The position numbers were made by a program, and so were the translations under genes. Source: a virus. Taken from it: a stretch of 64,000 nucleotides of DNA. The stretch spans positions 33,081 to 97,080 of IMG/VR virus record IMGVR_UViG_3300031414_000013; one strand, 5' to 3'. The notes under the pieces were generated by a model, which searched no databases, had not been told where the DNA came from, and was given only the letters and a program-made list of their open reading frames with translations. Positions 6,913 through 32,246 of the stretch are shown piece by piece (the stretch's first letter is position 1; each line of letters begins with the position of its first letter).

Positions 6913-7815
6913 TTAGTTTTCCACCGCAGTTTTGCTCAGGCGAGCTTGCGCATGGTTGTAAGTATCATCGCGACCGAAGTCAATCACGCGGATGCTGGAC
7001 TGCGCGATTATCGGGTACATAGTAATGACGATCGCTATAAAATAGTACCCGGCTTCAGCGTTATGACGCACTTCAACGGTGTGAGTGTAGCCGAAGTTTT
7101 CAGCACGCAGTAATCCTGCATAGTCGTCTACAAGCTCTTTACTCTCATGACGCAACGCAACAATCACACCGTTCCGATGGTGCTTAACCAAAACCGGCAT
7201 AACGTCAGATGGCACTGCCCAAGACTGAGGTGTAAGTTCCCGGTCAAGATTGAATTCGGCCTCATCCTCAATTGGTGCCTCCAGGAAACCCATGAAGTAA
7301 AGACGCAGTTTGTTCAGAATCTCGTACAGCACGCGAGTCTTCTCTGGAGTCTGCGCTGAGAACGTAACGCTACCGCCAGCAAAACCAACTACGATAGTGG
7401 TAGTGGCCGGACGAGGTTCTTCATCGCCGATGCGAGTCGGTTCTACCAAACTGATGCTGTAGGTGTTGGCCAGATCAAAACCGACTTCAGTAGGTACTGA
7501 GATCTGGTAGTGATAATGGTGCGGTACATTAACCACAGCAAGCACGCGACCAGTTTTAGAAATACGCAGGTTGCAAACTGACTTAAACTGCAAGAACGGG
7601 GCAAAGATCAAATCATCGAGGACGGTCTTAGCTTCAGACTTCTCGTCAATCAATTCTGCCAGTTCGTGCTCGAACACCAGGAACTCGATACCCATGGCAT
7701 CCTCTACGATAGCAGTGCCCGGTTCAGTACCAAAACCGAGATAGCGAACAGACTTAGAGCAGATGCCTTCGTCTGGGTCGTTCCATTGATACCAGGTATT
7801 CTTCACCAGTTTCAT
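6913..7815 (-). CDS. Hypothetical protein
   Basis: 300 aa, ATGA overlap with upstream gene. Confidence 0.75.
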   Translation of the reverse strand: MKLVKNTWYQWNDPDEGICSKSVRYLGFGTEPGTAIVEDAMGIEFLVFEHELAELIDEKSEAKTVLDDLIFAPFLQFKSVCNLRISKTGRVLAVVNVPHHYHYQISVPTEVGFDLANTYSISLVEPTRIGDEEPRPATTTIVVGFAGGSVTFSAQTPEKTRVLYEILNKLRLYFMGFLEAPIEDEAEFNLDRELTPQSWAVPSDVMPVLVKHHRNGVIVALRHESKELVDDYAGLLRAENFGYTHTVEVRHNAEAGYYFIAIVITMYPIIAQSSIRVIDFGRDDTYNHAQARLSKTAVEN

Positions 7816-8312
7816 TTGTTCTTTCCTTTCATTTTGAAGTTTGAGGCAAGAGCAGCAAGCTCGTCGAATGTACGAATAACAAACTGATGCTCTTTGGCGT
7901 CAGTTGCTTTACAGAAAAGCTTCACTGCGTCTTCCAGCGTATCCGTAAGCTCTAAGGCAGCGCGGGCATGCTCTTCTGCGGTAAGGTACTGAGATCGACA
8001 GGTCAACACACCCGGCCCGGTCATAATACGAACCTCACTGAGAAACGAATTTTCCTTATCGACGAAATAGTCACGCAAAACGCCATGCTCATCGACAACG
8101 GCAGTTATCCAGCGACTATCGTGGTTGATGTTATCGGAAACGCCGTCAGCGCGATAGTCCAGGAAGTTAGCGAACACCGGACTAGTCGGTACCAACACGC
8201 CGTACTTAGTAGTCAAAACAGCCAGCGGAATATGTGTGTACATGCCATTGGGACGAACTTCACCACACACGAAAGCAATTCGGTTGTCTCGAACCATATA
8301 AACGTTTGACAT
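7812..8312 (-). CDS. Possible degenerate Ntn-hydrolase/HslV-like subunit
   Basis: N-terminal strands MSNVYMVRDNRIAFV and C-terminal ARAALELTDTLEDAV helix pattern parallel the adjacent HslV-like gene; catalytic motifs lost. Confidence 0.4.
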   Translation of the reverse strand: MSNVYMVRDNRIAFVCGEVRPNGMYTHIPLAVLTTKYGVLVPTSPVFANFLDYRADGVSDNINHDSRWITAVVDEHGVLRDYFVDKENSFLSEVRIMTGPGVLTCRSQYLTAEEHARAALELTDTLEDAVKLFCKATDAKEHQFVIRTFDELAALASNFKMKGKNK

Positions 8313-8313
8313 C

Positions 8314-8835
8314 TCAACCTACCTTAATTGCTTTCAGTTTGTTAGCGTGATACACATCTACACCACGACCAGACAGGGTGTCCATTCGGTTAGCGAATTC
8401 AACGGCCTGTTTTGGTGTACGACCAGAGAGCATGGCGGAGGATGCGAAGGTAGCACCCGTACCAACTGTGAAGTAGTCGATGTGCTCGTCGGAGATTGAG
8501 ATCAACCCTTCGATGATACTGATAAACAGTTTGCGAGTCAGGATCAGGGTGGGTTTACGCACACGTTTACTAACCGCAAGAGCGAGTTCAGTGAATCCGG
8601 TGTCAGTCAACTGACCACCTCCCGCAAAGTGGTGAGCAACCATGCGGAACAGTTTCTCTAACTCGTCAGTGTGGTTCTTACTGAGATCGATGCCAGTAGA
8701 ACCGTAGACGAATGTACCGCAGTCAGACATTTTCAGCTTTGGACCATCAGCGAAATGCGTACCACCGTCGTCACCCTTGATTAGCAATTGGCGATCAGCG
8801 GCGATACATTTACTATTAACAACAATCGTTGTCAT
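8314..8835 (-). CDS. HslV/proteasome-beta-like Ntn threonine peptidase
   Basis: M-TTIV N-terminus, AADRQ, Lys near 33, VGTGATFA..AM..G.TP..AV..A...D..SG. Confidence 0.85.
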   Translation of the reverse strand: MTTIVVNSKCIAADRQLLIKGDDGGTHFADGPKLKMSDCGTFVYGSTGIDLSKNHTDELEKLFRMVAHHFAGGGQLTDTGFTELALAVSKRVRKPTLILTRKLFISIIEGLISISDEHIDYFTVGTGATFASSAMLSGRTPKQAVEFANRMDTLSGRGVDVYHANKLKAIKVG

Positions 8836-8865
8836 GTTTTGATTCCTTATGGTGCGAAATAGAAC

Positions 8866-8896
8866 GAGAGTGGGTTTTCACCCACTCTCTTATGCC
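8866..8896. terminator. Hairpin with TTATGCC on the plus side
   Basis: GAGAGTGGGT-TTTC-ACCCACTCTC-TTATGCC. Confidence 0.7.
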
Positions 8897-9217
8897 TTAG
8901 AAGCCGTTAGACTTCATGCTGCGATCTGGGCTACCACGACCTGTGCGTTCAGGGGTGCGCGCAACAGACTTAACTACATCGCGACCAATCAGCAGACCGG
9001 AGTCCAGCTGGAAAGTAATCGCGTCGCCAACAGACAGAGTTTTCTCACCTTCCAGATAGTCGACCTTAACCGGAACCTGGCAGTGGTCTTCACCAGAGAT
9101 AAAGATACCTTTCTTGTTGATGGCAACAACTTCAGCCTTGACGGTGGTGACGTCACCTGCTTTGCCTTCCTGGACATTCAGCAGTGGTTTGAATTTATCA
9201 GCAATGGTCAGTTTCAT
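8897..9217 (-). CDS. Small beta-rich (S1/OB-like) protein
   Basis: VKAEVVAINKKGIFI and LSVGDAITF resemble S1 strands. Confidence 0.45.
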   Translation of the reverse strand: MKLTIADKFKPLLNVQEGKAGDVTTVKAEVVAINKKGIFISGEDHCQVPVKVDYLEGEKTLSVGDAITFQLDSGLLIGRDVVKSVARTPERTGRGSPDRSMKSNGF

Positions 9218-9247
9218 TTCTTACGTTCCTATTAGTAAAGGGGAGCC

Positions 9248-11618
<2,371 letters not shown>

Positions 11619-11685
11619 TGTGTTTCCTTATATGGGTTAGTCAGAGAATTTCTCGTGCGTGTAAATTACTACCACATTCGCACTA

Positions 11686-11714
11686 GGATAATGTATACTT
11701 GAAACTTTGTTGAA
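11686..11714 (-). promoter_or_regulatory. Putative early (virion RNAP) promoter
   Basis: TTTCAAGTATACATTATCC, member of a 7-copy motif resembling the phiKZ early TATATTAC element. Confidence 0.7.
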
Positions 11715-11715
11715 C

Positions 11716-11760
11716 AAAAAAAGAAAAGGATAGAAAAGAGGAGACCCGAAGGTCTCCTCT
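11716..11760 (-). terminator. Hairpin with displaced T-rich tract
   Basis: AGAGGAGACC-TTCG-GGTCTCCTCT, then TTTCTATCCTTTTCTTTTTTT. Confidence 0.8.
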
Positions 11761-11770
11761 AGTTTGTTAG

Positions 11771-12337
11771 TTATGCCCGAATCTGATGTTCTGCTGCTTT
11801 ATAAATAGCGTCCATGAATTCGGTGTTTTCAGATACCGTGGCATTGAAACTCACGGGTCCATTGGACACATCGATTTTAGCTTCAACGTTGATGTCCAGA
11901 TCAGGATAACCTACCACCAACGTAACGGACTGGAGTTTGGTACCGAGATATTCTAAACGCATGCCGCCGGTGATGTTACCCTGAGTTTCAGTTTCGTAAC
12001 GAGTGGTCGTTACGGACGCAAAGTCCTCAATCATTACTTCGTTGTCCACCAGCCAGCTAGCGCCTTTACGACCATGTTCGATGAGGTCACGGATCTCAGC
12101 GCGCTCAGTATCAGACAACGCATTGTCTGCATTGTAGGACTGCACGTAAAGCGTACGCTCAAACTCACCGGTTTCAGCATAGCTAGACAACGGACGGGTT
12201 TCCCAGATCGGTTGAGTGGACATTGTGTCGCCAGTTGCACGATCCTGTACAACGATTTCGCCAACGCACGATTCGTCTGATTCTACGATGATAGCAAAAC
12301 GGACATTGGTAAGAGCGATAGAAAGAATAGATTTCAT
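11771..12337 (-). CDS. Hypothetical early protein (monocistronic cassette)
   Basis: 188 aa between early promoter and terminator; RBS TAAGGAATC. Confidence 0.8.
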   Translation of the reverse strand: MKSILSIALTNVRFAIIVESDESCVGEIVVQDRATGDTMSTQPIWETRPLSSYAETGEFERTLYVQSYNADNALSDTERAEIRDLIEHGRKGASWLVDNEVMIEDFASVTTTRYETETQGNITGGMRLEYLGTKLQSVTLVVGYPDLDINVEAKIDVSNGPVSFNATVSENTEFMDAIYKAAEHQIRA

Positions 12338-12393
12338 GTTTTGATTCCTTATAGAGATTAAGTTGAGTGAACAGCATTGTTACTGTTCACTCA

Positions 12394-12424
12394 GGTCTTA
12401 TATATCTGAAAATTTATTGAAACG
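12394..12424 (-). promoter_or_regulatory. Putative early promoter, 31-nt exact repeat copy 1
   Basis: CGTTTCAATAAATTTTCAGATATATAAGACC, identical to 50004-50034. Confidence 0.8.
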
Positions 12425-12427
12425 ACA

Positions 12428-12919
12428 CTAGCGGTCACGAACCCGCACCAGTGCATCTCCCAACATATTCAGACCACGCCAACACGTTTGATCCATGTGG
12501 TCCGGATGATCAACGTCCATCCCAATTCCCCAGAGCGTATCTGTAGGTGAGGCTTCTACCAGCAGTCGCTTACCGGTTGCTTTCAGTTCAGCCATCATCT
12601 CTGGGTTCTGTTCAAACTTGGCAGACAGTACGTCACACATCGTAGCAAATCGCTCGCCAGCCCATACCTGATCGTTGTAAGGAGATACTTCACGACCCAG
12701 CATTTTACAGATGAACGGGGCATTACGTTTGCCTGGATCTACGGCAGCGATTTTAGCAGCCACCCGGTAGTCCTTAAAGTGCATTGCCTTCAACCACATG
12801 AATGCCTGTTCTGAGCAGAAGAAATTCACGCCCGCCAAGTTAAACTCGCAACGATAGAAGTTGCTGTAGATGTCGTCCCCATAATAGAAGAAGACAAACT
12901 CATCAGTTGTCTTTACCAT
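12428..12919 (-). CDS. NADAR (YbiA-like) family protein
   Basis: YSNFY, SEQAFMWLKA..F.D, KMLGR, KFEQN, LVEASPTD..WGIG, GLNMLG. Confidence 0.93.
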   Translation of the reverse strand: MVKTTDEFVFFYYGDDIYSNFYRCEFNLAGVNFFCSEQAFMWLKAMHFKDYRVAAKIAAVDPGKRNAPFICKMLGREVSPYNDQVWAGERFATMCDVLSAKFEQNPEMMAELKATGKRLLVEASPTDTLWGIGMDVDHPDHMDQTCWRGLNMLGDALVRVRDR

Positions 12920-13163
12920 GTGTCTCCACCGTACATTCGAGGACAATAGCAGGAGGGAAGAAGTCAGGCTTGTTGGTAATGCTATCCCACTGCACCTGAA
13001 TCTGCTCACGTAGTTGCTGTTGTAATATCAGCTTGAGCTTAAACACTGGACACTGATACTTACGGCGACCTTTAGGAATGACCTGGTACGGGTTCTTACG
13101 ATGCAGGTTTTTCTTTTCCTGTCGAGTCAGAACAGCCGTTGGGTCTATGTACGACTTTGGCAT
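12903..13163 (-). CDS. Hypothetical basic protein
   Basis: 86 aa in operon. Confidence 0.55.
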   Translation of the reverse strand: MPKSYIDPTAVLTRQEKKNLHRKNPYQVIPKGRRKYQCPVFKLKLILQQQLREQIQVQWDSITNKPDFFPPAIVLECTVETHGKDN

Positions 13164-13657
13164 TTTAACATCCTCTTCATTTTCTCAGAGAAAGAAACCT
13201 TCTCTTTGATGACTGGTTCGAAATAGCTAAAGAAGGCGGCTACCGAATGACATGCGTTCGCTGCCAGGATACAATTCAACAGCACCGCATGCTCTTCGCT
13301 TTTCAGTGGGTTCAGTCCAGGCATATTGAACGGATGTCGTCTACCCGCATCGATGTTCTCCTGTGTCCACAGTGGAGCCACAGCCAACCCTGGATGTTTG
13401 TACCCAATAACATCATTCACAAGCCACGTACCGTCGCATGTGACGATCAAGGCTTTATGCGTGAGGTTGCCGTAGAAGCTATCGCCCTTCTCAAGATAGC
13501 CTTCCAGTAGGAAGTCAAGGTGCTCACGGAATGCGAATACACCAACCATGATAATCTGACTACCTGCCCATTTAGCATCTGGACCATTTTTACTGTAGGC
13601 GAAACAGAGCTGCGCTGCGCTGTCCTCCACACCGTTAGATGAAAGCATGACTCTCAT
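13145..13657 (-). CDS. Hypothetical protein, possible degenerate Ntn-fold paralog
   Basis: WAGSQIIMVG...ALIVT..TWLV parallels WGKEVILAVAG...MLVLT..CYEV of 14474..15118. Confidence 0.5.
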   Translation of the reverse strand: MRVMLSSNGVEDSAAQLCFAYSKNGPDAKWAGSQIIMVGVFAFREHLDFLLEGYLEKGDSFYGNLTHKALIVTCDGTWLVNDVIGYKHPGLAVAPLWTQENIDAGRRHPFNMPGLNPLKSEEHAVLLNCILAANACHSVAAFFSYFEPVIKEKVSFSEKMKRMLKCQSRT

Positions 13658-14103
13658 TGGAGACTCCCGTTAAATACGTACTCGAGTTTACCACGACGAT
13701 ACGCACCTTTAACAACTTCATCTAGTGAGTAGCCATAGCGATTAACAAAGATCCTACTGTACTGACCTAGTAGCTCCTCAGACACGGTCACGAGCGGTGC
13801 GCTGGTCTCCAGAAGCTCCATGCCTCGCTCTAGGAGTCGTAACCCTAAGCCAGTGTTCTGATGACTTGGGGAGACCCTTACACAACGTAGTTTCTTTTCG
13901 TCCCCATTTTTAGCCAAAACAAAACCGGCCAGCGTCCCGCCAACAAAAGCTCCTATTGCTAGGTTGCTTTCATTGGCGGGGTCAGATAGGACTTTGTTAC
14001 GATACCAGTTGTCAATGTTCGGGTAGTACTGATCTAATGTCAGCAGGGATGGAGTGAGGAGCCGAAGCTCCTCCAACGTGTTAAGTTTTCTTATTTCTAA
14101 CAT
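13654..14103 (-). CDS. GNAT acetyltransferase
   Basis: KLRCVRVSPSHQNTGLGLRLL acetyl-CoA binding motif A. Confidence 0.85.
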   Translation of the reverse strand: MLEIRKLNTLEELRLLTPSLLTLDQYYPNIDNWYRNKVLSDPANESNLAIGAFVGGTLAGFVLAKNGDEKKLRCVRVSPSHQNTGLGLRLLERGMELLETSAPLVTVSEELLGQYSRIFVNRYGYSLDEVVKGAYRRGKLEYVFNGSLQ

Positions 14104-14464
14104 TGTTCAACCAGAAGACAAACCGTAACCAAAGTCGGCCCCACCAATGCTTGTTCAATTTAGTGAACATCTGAACCGACTCACCCATTTCTTTAAAGAC
14201 TTCGGAGTTGGAGAAAACACCAACCTGACCGTATGGCGTATGCAATGCCGCATACCAACCGTAGGCGTCGTCTGGTTTATCCTTGATCTCCTTAAGCTCC
14301 CAGCCAGGATAGCTCTCCGCAATAACATCACGCATTGCACCTGGGTCGTACAGATAGTCAGTGCGAAGACTATCTTTGATATGTTCGGGCGCGTTGTCGT
14401 GCCACCAGTCACGAGCCGCTGGATTTTCATCAAGCCACTCTTTTGCTATTTTCAAACTATCCAT
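14081..14464 (-). CDS. Hypothetical Trp-rich protein
   Basis: 127 aa, AAGGA RBS. Confidence 0.7.
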   Translation of the reverse strand: MDSLKIAKEWLDENPAARDWWHDNAPEHIKDSLRTDYLYDPGAMRDVIAESYPGWELKEIKDKPDDAYGWYAALHTPYGQVGVFSNSEVFKEMGESVQMFTKLNKHWWGRLWLRFVFWLNNVRNKKT

Positions 14465-14473
14465 TGTGATTCC

Positions 14474-15118
14474 TTAATATTTAAATGTGTTGTTGTACCA
14501 AGTGCCGAATCTTACCGCATAGCTAAGCAAGCAACCGTAGTACACGCGAAGCATTGGATAACGATAGTGCTTAGTGACCATCTTAGGTTCACGCGCATTT
14601 GTATCGTACATACGCAGGTATCCACCGCAGCCAGCCGATAAGGCTATCGCTGCACAGACAGTACCAATTTCATCTGTCTTGAAAAACCGTGTGATGACTT
14701 CCACCGGAGCACGCCCAGATCCAATGCATACGAATTCATCACGCTTGTGATTTTTAACCACAAATGCTGAACCTTCACTTGACCGACGGAAGTTGACTTC
14801 GTAGCAATGGTTAGCTGTCAAGACTAACATAGTGCAATCCAACCCAACTGCCGCTTTTATAGCACGCAACACTTTATACGAGTCGAGTGCTTCCTTGCCG
14901 CCCTTTAGTAGCATTTCCGTTGCGATAGTGATTGCATCAGACGCACCTGCACCAGCAACAGCCAGGATAACCTCTTTACCCCAAACCGCAAGTTTCTCCT
15001 CTTGCCTATATGCCGGGTAAGGTGTGATCTTTACAATGTTATCGTGTTGAGACACACCGCGTGCTACCGTTCTTGAGTCCGCATAAAAGACACCATCGCG
15101 CTGAACAATGACCGTCAT
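14474..15118 (-). CDS. Second HslV/proteasome-beta-like Ntn peptidase
   Basis: M-TVIV, YADSR, IVKI, VAGAG, CIGSG, SAGCGG. Confidence 0.75.
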   Translation of the reverse strand: MTVIVQRDGVFYADSRTVARGVSQHDNIVKITPYPAYRQEEKLAVWGKEVILAVAGAGASDAITIATEMLLKGGKEALDSYKVLRAIKAAVGLDCTMLVLTANHCYEVNFRRSSEGSAFVVKNHKRDEFVCIGSGRAPVEVITRFFKTDEIGTVCAAIALSAGCGGYLRMYDTNAREPKMVTKHYRYPMLRVYYGCLLSYAVRFGTWYNNTFKY

Positions 15119-15120
15119 CA

Positions 15121-15453
15121 TTACTCCTTAATTAACACCAGAACTTCACCGTCCATATCCGCTACACCAGCAGCATAGACCAACGCATCCTCGACACCCA
15201 GGCCGTTAGAGTCGCCTTCCAGTAGCAATTCAATTATGCGACTGGCTAGCCAGGTCGGCAACGTATGCGTAGTGTTGCCTTTGACTAAAGCAACCGTGTT
15301 TACTTTGTCATACGGACCTTCAAAATAAATCATGAAGGAATGTGACGGCGTGATGCACTTCCGGTCAACAACACGATTGACTTTATAAAGAAGTACGGTG
15401 TCCCAAACTGTAAACTGACGCTTGGTCACTTGGATTGGGTTTTTGTTGATCAT
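15121..15453 (-). CDS. Hypothetical protein
   Basis: 110 aa, translationally coupled. Confidence 0.6.
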   Translation of the reverse strand: MINKNPIQVTKRQFTVWDTVLLYKVNRVVDRKCITPSHSFMIYFEGPYDKVNTVALVKGNTTHTLPTWLASRIIELLLEGDSNGLGVEDALVYAAGVADMDGEVLVLIKE

Positions 15454-15731
15454 ACGACCTCCGGGTGCGTGTTATAGATGACCCATTGTTTACAGCGTTC
15501 CATGATTTCCTCTACGGCATCGCGCTCCACACCTGCGTCCAACAAACCAGTCTCGATGTCCGGTAAGGTTTGGAAGTCCCAACGGCCGTCGGCTCGCGCT
15601 GCCGTAATAAAAGCTATCCAGTCTACCCGCATTTTTCTTTTTACGATGATCTCATTTAAAGAAACGTCGAGTGGTAATCCGTGGGTTGCTTTGAGTTGAA
15701 ACAGTTTGTCGCCTGGAAATAAAATAGACAC
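15450..15731 (-). CDS. Alanyl-tRNA synthetase helical-fragment-like protein
   Basis: PGDKLFQLKATHGLPLDV...MRVDW..F resembles AlaRS G..AF.LYDTYGFP.D...VD...F. Confidence 0.65.
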   Translation of the reverse strand: MSILFPGDKLFQLKATHGLPLDVSLNEIIVKRKMRVDWIAFITAARADGRWDFQTLPDIETGLLDAGVERDAVEEIMERCKQWVIYNTHPEVV

Positions 15732-30896: not shown

Positions 30897-32246
30897 TTAG
30901 GCTGCTATTTGAAGGCGACGTTGTCCTTCTTCGTAGAGGGCATCTACAAAGCGCTGTACGTCAGTGGGGTTTGACTTAAAGGTTTTCTGTACCGTCGCAC
31001 CAGGTAATGAAGGGAAAGGCGCGTTGGCTACATACGTTTCGCCAGGGAACATCAACTCAACGTAACGACGCAGTTCCTTATCTTCCAGGTAATCGATACA
31101 GACACGGGCATCAACACGTTCATCTCGAATCAATGCTTCGTCCAGTTGTTCAGGATGGTTAGTGGTCATAATGACAATGACGTCATCTAAACCTAACACA
31201 CCATCCAGACCATTAAGTAGCTCCGACAGATTGCCACTCAGATACTCATCAATGACATCGCGTTGTAACGGCTCAGCCACTGGTGCAGTATTGGACTCGC
31301 CATCGCGTTCCTTCTTGATCTTCTTAACGATACCAAACTCAGGGTCTGTTTCCTGATTGTCACGGCGACGAGAAACAGAATAAGTATCGATATCTTCGAT
31401 CAAGACCACGCCACCTTTGGCACTCTGTAAGAGAGTGTTGTATGATGACGTACCATCGGGCTTGAGGATGTGTATAGGGCGATTAAGCATCGAAGCTATA
31501 GCAGCCGCCAGTGAACTCTTGCCTGTCCCTGGAGGGCCATACAGGAGCACGGTGAACTTATAGTTGAAACCACGCTTACGATACCAATCCCGGTTGGTTT
31601 GGAATTTGACGAGCGGGTCTAACAGCTCAGTCTGCACTTTATCGCTAACAACAACTGTGTTAGGGTCACGCTTATTCATTCGCGTAATCCAGTTCCATTC
31701 TGACTTACCGCTTTCGAATACATTCAACTGGTGGTGTTCTGCATCGACGTCCATGAATGCATCCATCAGTCTGAACAGAGGACCTTTACTACGACCCAAT
31801 GTGGAGATACTGATGCGGTATTTCGATTGGTTGGATTGGTTCGCCTGGTCTTCAGCAATCGTGAAGAAATAGAAGCGGCGCATATAGATGAAGAAGTGAG
31901 TACCAACCCCTGGGCCTACTGACCCACGAGCATTCCCACCATCCAACGTAATCACACGGCTCCACTTAAACCACGAGTTCTTAGAGAACCATTCCAAGAA
32001 TGCAATATACTGACGGCTGTTGTATTCAGACCAGTTAGTTGATGCAGTAGAGAAGCTCAACTTTGTCATGCACTGTGTACGAACTAAATGCATGACGCGT
32101 TGCGGTAACTTCCACAGTAAGAAACCAATCCCGCCAGTAAAGACCAGAGAACTTGTTGTAACAATCGCCGCTTGTGCAGCAGGCCACGGTTTAGCATAGT
32201 CAAGAATGACTTGATATAGCGCCAGCAGATGTTCTATCATGACCAC
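30897..32246 (-). CDS. BCS1-like membrane-anchored AAA+ ATPase
   Basis: N-terminal TM; WY..RG..YK..VLLYGPPGTGKS; IEDID; LSELLNGLDG; TTNHPEQLDEALIR..RVD. Confidence 0.85.
   Translation of the reverse strand: MVMIEHLLALYQVILDYAKPWPAAQAAIVTTSSLVFTGGIGFLLWKLPQRVMHLVRTQCMTKLSFSTASTNWSEYNSRQYIAFLEWFSKNSWFKWSRVITLDGGNARGSVGPGVGTHFFIYMRRFYFFTIAEDQANQSNQSKYRISISTLGRSKGPLFRLMDAFMDVDAEHHQLNVFESGKSEWNWITRMNKRDPNTVVVSDKVQTELLDPLVKFQTNRDWYRKRGFNYKFTVLLYGPPGTGKSSLAAAIASMLNRPIHILKPDGTSSYNTLLQSAKGGVVLIEDIDTYSVSRRRDNQETDPEFGIVKKIKKERDGESNTAPVAEPLQRDVIDEYLSGNLSELLNGLDGVLGLDDVIVIMTTNHPEQLDEALIRDERVDARVCIDYLEDKELRRYVELMFPGETYVANAPFPSLPGATVQKTFKSNPTDVQRFVDALYEEGQRRLQIAA

Follow-up and report, generated by a model that had tools for sequence, protein, structure and literature searches.

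We analysed a 64,000-nucleotide (nt) stretch of viral DNA, hereafter the window, which comprises positions 33081-97080 of the linear 97-kb record IMGVR_UViG_3300031414_000013 in IMG/VR. The subject of this report is a pair of adjacent genes in it, B and A, which encode an HslV-like peptidase and a predicted catalytically dead protein of the same fold, together with three further open reading frames (ORFs), C, D and E. A sequence-only reading of the window had proposed that B and D are active N-terminal nucleophile (Ntn) threonine proteases, that A, C and E are degenerate relatives of them, and that active and dead subunits combine into heteromeric particles. All five ORFs are present on the minus strand, which holds every gene from 6 to 17.5 kb of the window; their lengths are given in amino acids (aa).

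7812..8312, minus strand: A, predicted catalytically dead HslV/proteasome-beta-fold protein (phrog_8172 family), 166 aa; its ATG lies 1 nt after the B stop
8314..8835, minus strand: B, HslV-family (proteasome-like) Ntn peptidase, 173 aa, starting M-TTIV
13145..13657, minus strand: C, proposed degenerate subunit, 170 aa, clade-restricted; proposal not supported
14474..15118, minus strand: D, second HslV-family Ntn peptidase, 214 aa from the second ATG, starting M-TVIV
15121..15453, minus strand: E, proposed degenerate subunit, 110 aa, adjoining D; proposal not supported

Genomic setting and comparison set

CheckV estimates the completeness of the 97-kb record at 36%, which implies a genome of roughly 270 kb and hence a jumbo phage. 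A megablast search of GenBank phages with the region gave no match. Scans of IMG/VR, JGI metagenomes and GTDB yielded no more than two near-identical contigs, a single partial relative (L012) and near-identical IMG/VR copies of phages PhiEaH1 and RAY; the region is common to the two near-identical contigs alone, with protein identity of 72-89%. The closest isolate is Erwinia phage pEa_SNUABM_54 (272.6 kb), with which the window phage shares the gene order GNAT acetyltransferase, NADAR, NAD-dependent ligase (NAD, nicotinamide adenine dinucleotide), small ORF, B, A. Seven genomes carrying B and A were compared: the window phage, its close relative G001, pEa_SNUABM_54, PhiEaH1, Ea35-70, Moabite and Ralstonia phage RSF1. 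Beyond the window phage and its close relative, these represent five jumbo-phage lineages with Erwinia, Serratia and Ralstonia as hosts.

HslV-like peptidases B and D

Both B and D matched phrog_1040, annotated as 'peptidase HslV family', over their whole length, with alignments starting at residue 1-2 (E values of 1.2e-13 and 4.2e-9, respectively). Used as a control, the same profile gave HslV/proteasome genes in 9 of 14 control genomes, including E. coli, B. subtilis and archaeal genomes. When the profile of B orthologues from six phage lineages was aligned with the D family by hhalign, a probability of 94% (E 1.1e-7) was obtained over 153 columns from residue 1, an earlier comparison of the two families having given 92%; a B-family hidden Markov model (HMM) run against all 161 ORFs of the window likewise picked out D (E 5.8e-5). 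By these profile comparisons, B and D are homologous.

The hallmark residues of the proteasome-like family are Thr1/Ser1, Asp17, Lys33 and Gly47 (PMC8665760). Equivalents of all of these, together with the GxG before helix 3, are retained by B and D. T/S2, D14, K33, G48 and G125/G127 are unchanged in B across six lineages, as are T2, D14, K30, the AGAG stretch (A55-G58) and G133-S134-G135 across five homologues of D. Residue 2 is accordingly always T or S among the six B lineages and always T among the five D homologues. A Shine-Dalgarno-like AAGGA lies 8 nt ahead of the B ATG, and the spacing of an AAGGAG at D fits the second ATG better than the first, so that the M-TTIV and M-TVIV starts are favoured in both genes; from these starts, loss of the initiator Met would free the nucleophile in either protein with no propeptide. 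The threonine-protease signatures that had been noticed in B and D are thus borne out by the phrog_1040 matches and by conservation of the residues named.

Neither protein matched Pfam (no PF00227 match at E<=10) or NCBIfam, and PDB sequence searches with B and D gave no match. PDB searches with B, D and the A-, B- and D-family alignments found no HslV, returning only spurious helix-loop-helix matches to designed repeat proteins. B and D are, as judged from their sequences, very divergent members of the HslV family. GenBank entries agree with this assignment: B orthologues in the same gene position are called 'peptidase HslV family' in Erwinia phage PhiEaH1 and in Serratia phages Moabite and 2050HW.

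D carries a C-terminal extension of about 40 aa and gave no tblastn match among GenBank phages. It is a second HslV-like peptidase, separate from B and specific to the clade, and it probably functions with no dead paralogue. PhiEaH1 (NC_023610.1) has a second, lone phrog_1040 match at 134225-134755 (E 2.9e-5), far from its B-A pair; two HslV-like genes are thus present in PhiEaH1, as in the window phage.

A, a predicted inactive copy of the fold

The sole family match of A was phrog_8172, listed as of 'unknown function'. An exhaustive HMMER search of 1.8 billion proteins gathered the A family into 40 clusters at 50% identity. Pfam searches over all 45 aligned members identified no family, the A profile matched no solved structure, and profile and Pfam searches found no match between A and HslV by sequence. 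phrog_8172 was absent from all 14 cellular control genomes, and scanning GTDB genomes by pattern brought up no relative.

The predicted structure was far more informative. AlphaFold2 with the 45-row alignment modelled A with a predicted local distance difference test score (pLDDT) of 92.7 and a predicted template modelling score of 0.88. In a Foldseek search of the PDB with this model, the top 50 matches were all 20S proteasome subunits (E about 5e-3). Against BFVD, the model retrieved its own orthologues first (PhiEaH1, template modelling (TM) score 0.86; Ralstonia RSF1, 0.81), followed by phage 'proteasome subunit beta' and HslV entries. Modelling and Foldseek therefore confirm that A is predicted to adopt the alpha-beta-beta-alpha Ntn sandwich fold, as the sequence-only reading had suggested by eye.

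The catalytic residues are not kept in this family. In structural alignments, residue 3 of A falls on Thr1; this position is Asn in 26/45 members, and the preceding position 2 is Ser in 16/45 and Thr in only 3/45. The Lys33 equivalent is not conserved (K36 occurs in only 14/45), nor is that of Asp17, there being no conserved acidic residue past strand 2. The family strongly conserves residues of its own: N22, T35, G38, P42 (45/45), D52, R95, R106, S107, E113 and E114. This conservation indicates that A is under selection for some function and, taken with the loss of the catalytic triad, points to a selected, non-catalytic paralogue. The possibility that A is a decaying pseudogene was considered and rejected, since the 45 members of the family are diverse and share strongly conserved residues.

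Little of the relationship between A and B survives at the sequence level. Pairwise BLASTP among A, B, C and D gave nothing significant. The by-eye pairing of ARAALELTDTLEDAV in one protein with ASSAMLSGRTPKQAV in the other, on which the first comparison of A and B had relied, coincides with the only segment that hhalign aligns between the two families, and the motif pair corresponds to helices 3-4; the alignment is not significant alone (E 0.05-0.06).

Conservation of the B-A gene pair

The order B then A is held in all seven genomes. Each of the six genomes tested (the window phage, G001, pEa_SNUABM_54, PhiEaH1, Ea35-70 and Moabite) has exactly one phrog_8172 gene, and a phrog_1040 gene immediately precedes it. 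In six of the seven genomes, B and A either lie 1 nt apart or overlap by 4-8 nt; in pEa_SNUABM_54 they are 12 nt apart. Searches by tblastn placed the arrangement also across the Agricanvirus and Moabitevirus groups, and the pair as a whole spans phages of gamma- and betaproteobacteria. The genes flanking it otherwise differ from lineage to lineage. The A orthologues downstream of the annotated peptidases are themselves entered as 'hypothetical protein' or assigned to phrog_8172.

In Ralstonia phage RSF1, ORF136 is A-like (hhalign 99%, E 2.6e-18) and is preceded by ORF137 with a 4-nt overlap. As annotated, ORF137 is without a nucleophile and has no PHROG match. If translation is taken to start at an ATG lying 72 nt ahead of the annotated GTG, the protein opens with MSLIVLY and its alignment with the B family begins at residue 1 (hhalign 96%, E 3.4e-9). 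The start of this gene (NC_028899.1; extracted piece L022, 1235-1804) therefore appears to be annotated 72 nt too far downstream, and the analysis of the pair flags it as mis-annotated.

Three features border the pair:

8866..8889, minus strand: terminator-like hairpin just upstream of B, 10-bp stem with 6 GC pairs
8897..9217, minus strand: small ORF upstream of B, 106 aa; Pfam S1_2 match at E 0.039, below cut-off
6913..7815, minus strand: 300-aa ORF sharing 4 nt with the end of A; no family match

The hairpin sets B and A apart from the unit formed by the ligase and the small ORF, and the annotation of Serratia phage Moabite has a terminator in the corresponding position. The position upstream of B is occupied by an ORF of 97-114 aa in all lineages examined. 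A five-lineage alignment of these ORFs showed 19-75% identity; their likeness is faint, consisting of QVP.KV and a basic tail at the C-terminus. phrog_11059 was matched by the copies of Ea35-70 (3.6e-66) and Moabite (0.004), and not by that of the window. Whether the small ORF belongs to the B-A module is uncertain. On the other side, ORF 6913..7815 is probably co-transcribed with B and A. It does not resemble the third gene of either Moabite or pEa_SNUABM_54, and a third gene after A was rejected as a module member, as it is not conserved between lineages.

C and E as proposed further subunits

The proposal that C and E are also degenerate Ntn subunits, such that rings might be built from up to five paralogues, finds no support in these data. 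C has only two homologues, no match in Pfam or NCBIfam, no HMM match, and no tblastn match in GenBank phages. Its models are unusable (AlphaFold2 pLDDT 36.7 with a 4-row alignment; ESM 0.35). Two genes, 14081-14464 and the GNAT acetyltransferase at 13654-14103, separate C from D, beside which it had been placed as a dead partner. Hints of a relationship to A are faint: the best hhalign result of C, obtained against the A family, aligned C 51-78 with A 50-79 in register at 4% probability (E 0.01), and BLASTP paired PG..SEEHA in C with PG..AEEHA in A (E 1.9).

E does adjoin D, its stop overlapping the first ATG of D, but it has no detectable similarity to anything. No match was found in Pfam, PHROG or NCBIfam, hhalign against the A and B families gave probabilities below 1%, and the ESM Atlas model (pLDDT 0.41) was without a usable match. 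With its 110 aa, E also falls short of the other four proteins, which have 166-214 aa. An acidic E next to a basic D mirrors the acidic A next to the basic B. C, like D and E, is restricted to a very narrow clade, that of the window phage; tblastn located neither D nor E in the partial relative L012.

Co-folding of B and A

Co-folding of B with A gave an ipSAE (interaction prediction score from aligned errors) of 0.47 (0.47, 0.48 and 0.47 in individual runs) against 0.00 for the best control, a result graded as 'weak support', and the runs agreed in 100% of contacts. In these runs the pLDDT of B was about 85, and the partner pLDDT was at least 86. The pass mark was reached by 58/80 solved complexes and 2/110 mismatched pairs in calibration, counts that hold only roughly here, as the alignments were custom-made (4 rows for B, 45 for A). 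Among the passes, an ipSAE <=0.60 was seen for only 7/80 solved complexes, plus both passing mismatches. Since B and A both resemble proteasome subunits, the pass may reflect memory of solved rings. The pair modelling thus weakly supports a physical association of B and A.

The isoelectric points differ within both neighbouring pairs (B 8.9 vs A 5.9; D 9.2 vs E 5.6), which could be a coincidence or a hint of partner binding.

Candidate unfoldases

No AAA_2 (HslU-type) gene occurs within the 97-kb fragment, which is about 36% complete, and among five related genomes only Ea35-70 has one. In phage RAY, a preprint describes gp116 as an HslU-family protein that co-localises with phage DNA. Two genes are relevant here:

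about 86.0-87.2 kb of Ea35-70 (NC_023557.1): 580-aa open frame with AAA_2 (HslU/Clp-type)
30897-32246 of the window, minus strand: AAA ATPase with BCS1_N, 449 aa (Pfam AAA 2.7e-18, BCS1_N 2.5e-8)

Homologues of the BCS1-like AAA protein are found in G001, pEa_SNUABM_54 and Moabite, and not in PhiEaH1 or Ea35-70. It might serve as an unfoldase for the peptidases, from which it is encoded 16-22 kb away. Across the genomes compared, no unfoldase gene co-occurs consistently with B and A.

Interpretation of the B-A pair

The most likely reading, to which we assign a probability of about 0.5, is that the two proteins assemble into an HslV-like particle with two kinds of subunit, A serving B as a non-catalytic partner. 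The core of this idea is supported by the shared fold, by the loss of the catalytic triad in A with other residues kept, and by strict B-then-A adjacency with tight junctions. The broader proposal of active and dead paralogues assembling into heteromers thus finds support for B and A, and none for C, for E or for a dead partner of D.

Under this reading, B would be a divergent HslV-type N-terminal-threonine peptidase in which removal of the initiator Met exposes Thr1, so that no propeptide would be needed. A would be a paralogue of the same fold that lost the Thr1/Asp17/Lys33 set and became fixed as the partner of B. With the start codon of A 1 nt after the stop of B, both would be made from one transcript and would assemble into a hetero-oligomeric particle, either with mixed rings or with an A ring stacked on a B ring. 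A may act as a structural, gating or substrate-docking subunit, analogous to the proteasome alpha subunit beside beta. The targets of the complex would be selected proteins of the host or the phage, degraded in the course of jumbo-phage infection with a host unfoldase or with none.

In the leading alternative, A acts independently. B would then be an ordinary homo-oligomeric HslV-like peptidase, as HslV and BPH are (PMC8665760), and A would separately poison or titrate host HslV/HslU or dock its substrates, their adjacency reflecting only an old tandem duplication and shared expression timing. Several observations fit this alternative: sequence similarity between A and B is gone, the conserved polar residues of A do not correspond to the catalytic site, and the lack of a consistent AAA+ partner in the phages makes a link to host HslU or ClpX plausible. 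Against it, the pair has been kept, with tight junctions, in seven genomes of gamma- and betaproteobacterial phages while other flanking genes change, and A, if it were a decoy for a host protein, should still be recognisably similar to host HslV, which by sequence it is not. We regard separate action of A as unlikely, if well worth keeping in view.

It is improbable that the pair is not degradative at all and constitutes another kind of Ntn enzyme, such as a processing amidase or a sequence-specific ligase/transpeptidase of the kind known as connectase in archaea, A being the half that binds the substrate; the closest HMM family of B is the HslV-type PHROG, and annotators report an HHpred match of the Moabite orthologue of B to T. 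maritima HslV 1M4Y. The five-paralogue ring is more improbable still, given the unusable models of C, the missing profile matches of C and E, the intervening genes, the short length of E and the narrow distribution of C, D and E.

More tentatively, the two-subunit particle may be a minimal two-gene 'viral proteasome' encoded by jumbo phages of Enterobacterales and Ralstonia, in which an HslV-like catalytic subunit is joined by an obligatory inactive paralogue occupying a cap or alternating ring positions. If true, this would be an independent viral re-invention of the division of labour between 20S alpha and beta subunits, removing specific host or defence proteins. Proteasome-like genes of phages are known while their function is not, and an active/inactive pair offers a concrete, testable handle on it. 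The pair would also be a small natural model for the divergence of catalytic and non-catalytic proteasome subunits after duplication, and phrog_8172 gains a fold and a likely role. These points bear on both proteasome evolution and jumbo-phage biology.

Neighbouring genes

The ligase-like, NADAR and GNAT genes are located between the two peptidase genes, and two further ORFs of the region gave weak family matches:

9248-11302, minus strand: NAD-dependent DNA-ligase-like ORF, 684 aa, named by eye; 52% identity with pEa_SNUABM_54
11271-11618, minus strand: 115-aa ORF; weak Phage_gp49_66 match (E 3e-4, below cut-off)
12428-13009, minus strand: NADAR-domain protein (Pfam 3.2e-37); 64% identity with pEa_SNUABM_54
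13654-14103, minus strand: GNAT acetyltransferase (phrog_13728, 5e-39); 73% identity with pEa_SNUABM_54
15450-15731, minus strand: 93-aa ORF; weak alanyl-tRNA synthetase match (PF01411, E 4.5e-4, below cut-off)
L012 6930-9535 and L003 16-1746: NAD-salvage genes of relatives

The region upstream of the GNAT gene, which holds D and E in the window phage, contains a NAMPT-like gene (Pfam NAPRTase and NAMPT_N) in both pEa_SNUABM_54 and L012, and in L012 a phosphoribosyl-pyrophosphate-synthetase-like gene as well. These NAD-salvage genes sit in a neighbourhood that also holds the NADAR gene and the NAD-dependent ligase.

Comparison with known systems

Bacterial HslV (ClpQ) is a homo-dodecamer that works with HslU. 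The phage system differs from it in that an inactive paralogue is fixed beside the active gene and no HslU-type gene is consistently present; B and D are, moreover, so divergent that PF00227, NCBIfam and PDB sequence searches miss them.

The 20S proteasome is the closer parallel in one respect, as it too combines an active Ntn subunit with a homologous inactive subunit of the same fold. Unlike the case of the 20S particle, nothing here points to four stacked heptameric rings. Structure comparison places A no closer to alpha than to beta proteasome subunits. The A model also differs from 20S alpha subunits in that no N-terminal gating helix is seen in it; its first element is a strand (residues 4-8).

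Phage proteasome homologues are themselves already known. Fuchs, Alva and Lupas (2021) described PPH, AAH, CPH and RPC (PMC8665760), and Salmonella phage pSal-SNUABM-04 has been reported with two HslV genes and no HslU. We found no paper on an inactive partner of a phage HslV-like peptidase, and the conserved inactive partner appears to be previously undescribed. By their published description, PPH, AAH, CPH and RPC resemble B and D in being compact, divergent proteasome-like genes of tailed phages with no AAA+ partner identified, and RPC has a C-terminal extension, as D does. In that survey (PMC8665760), all homologues kept the triad, and no informative genomic context and no AAA+ partner were identified. 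The genes described here differ from those homologues: they include a partner family that is triad-less, and it stands with the peptidase in a fixed gene pair.

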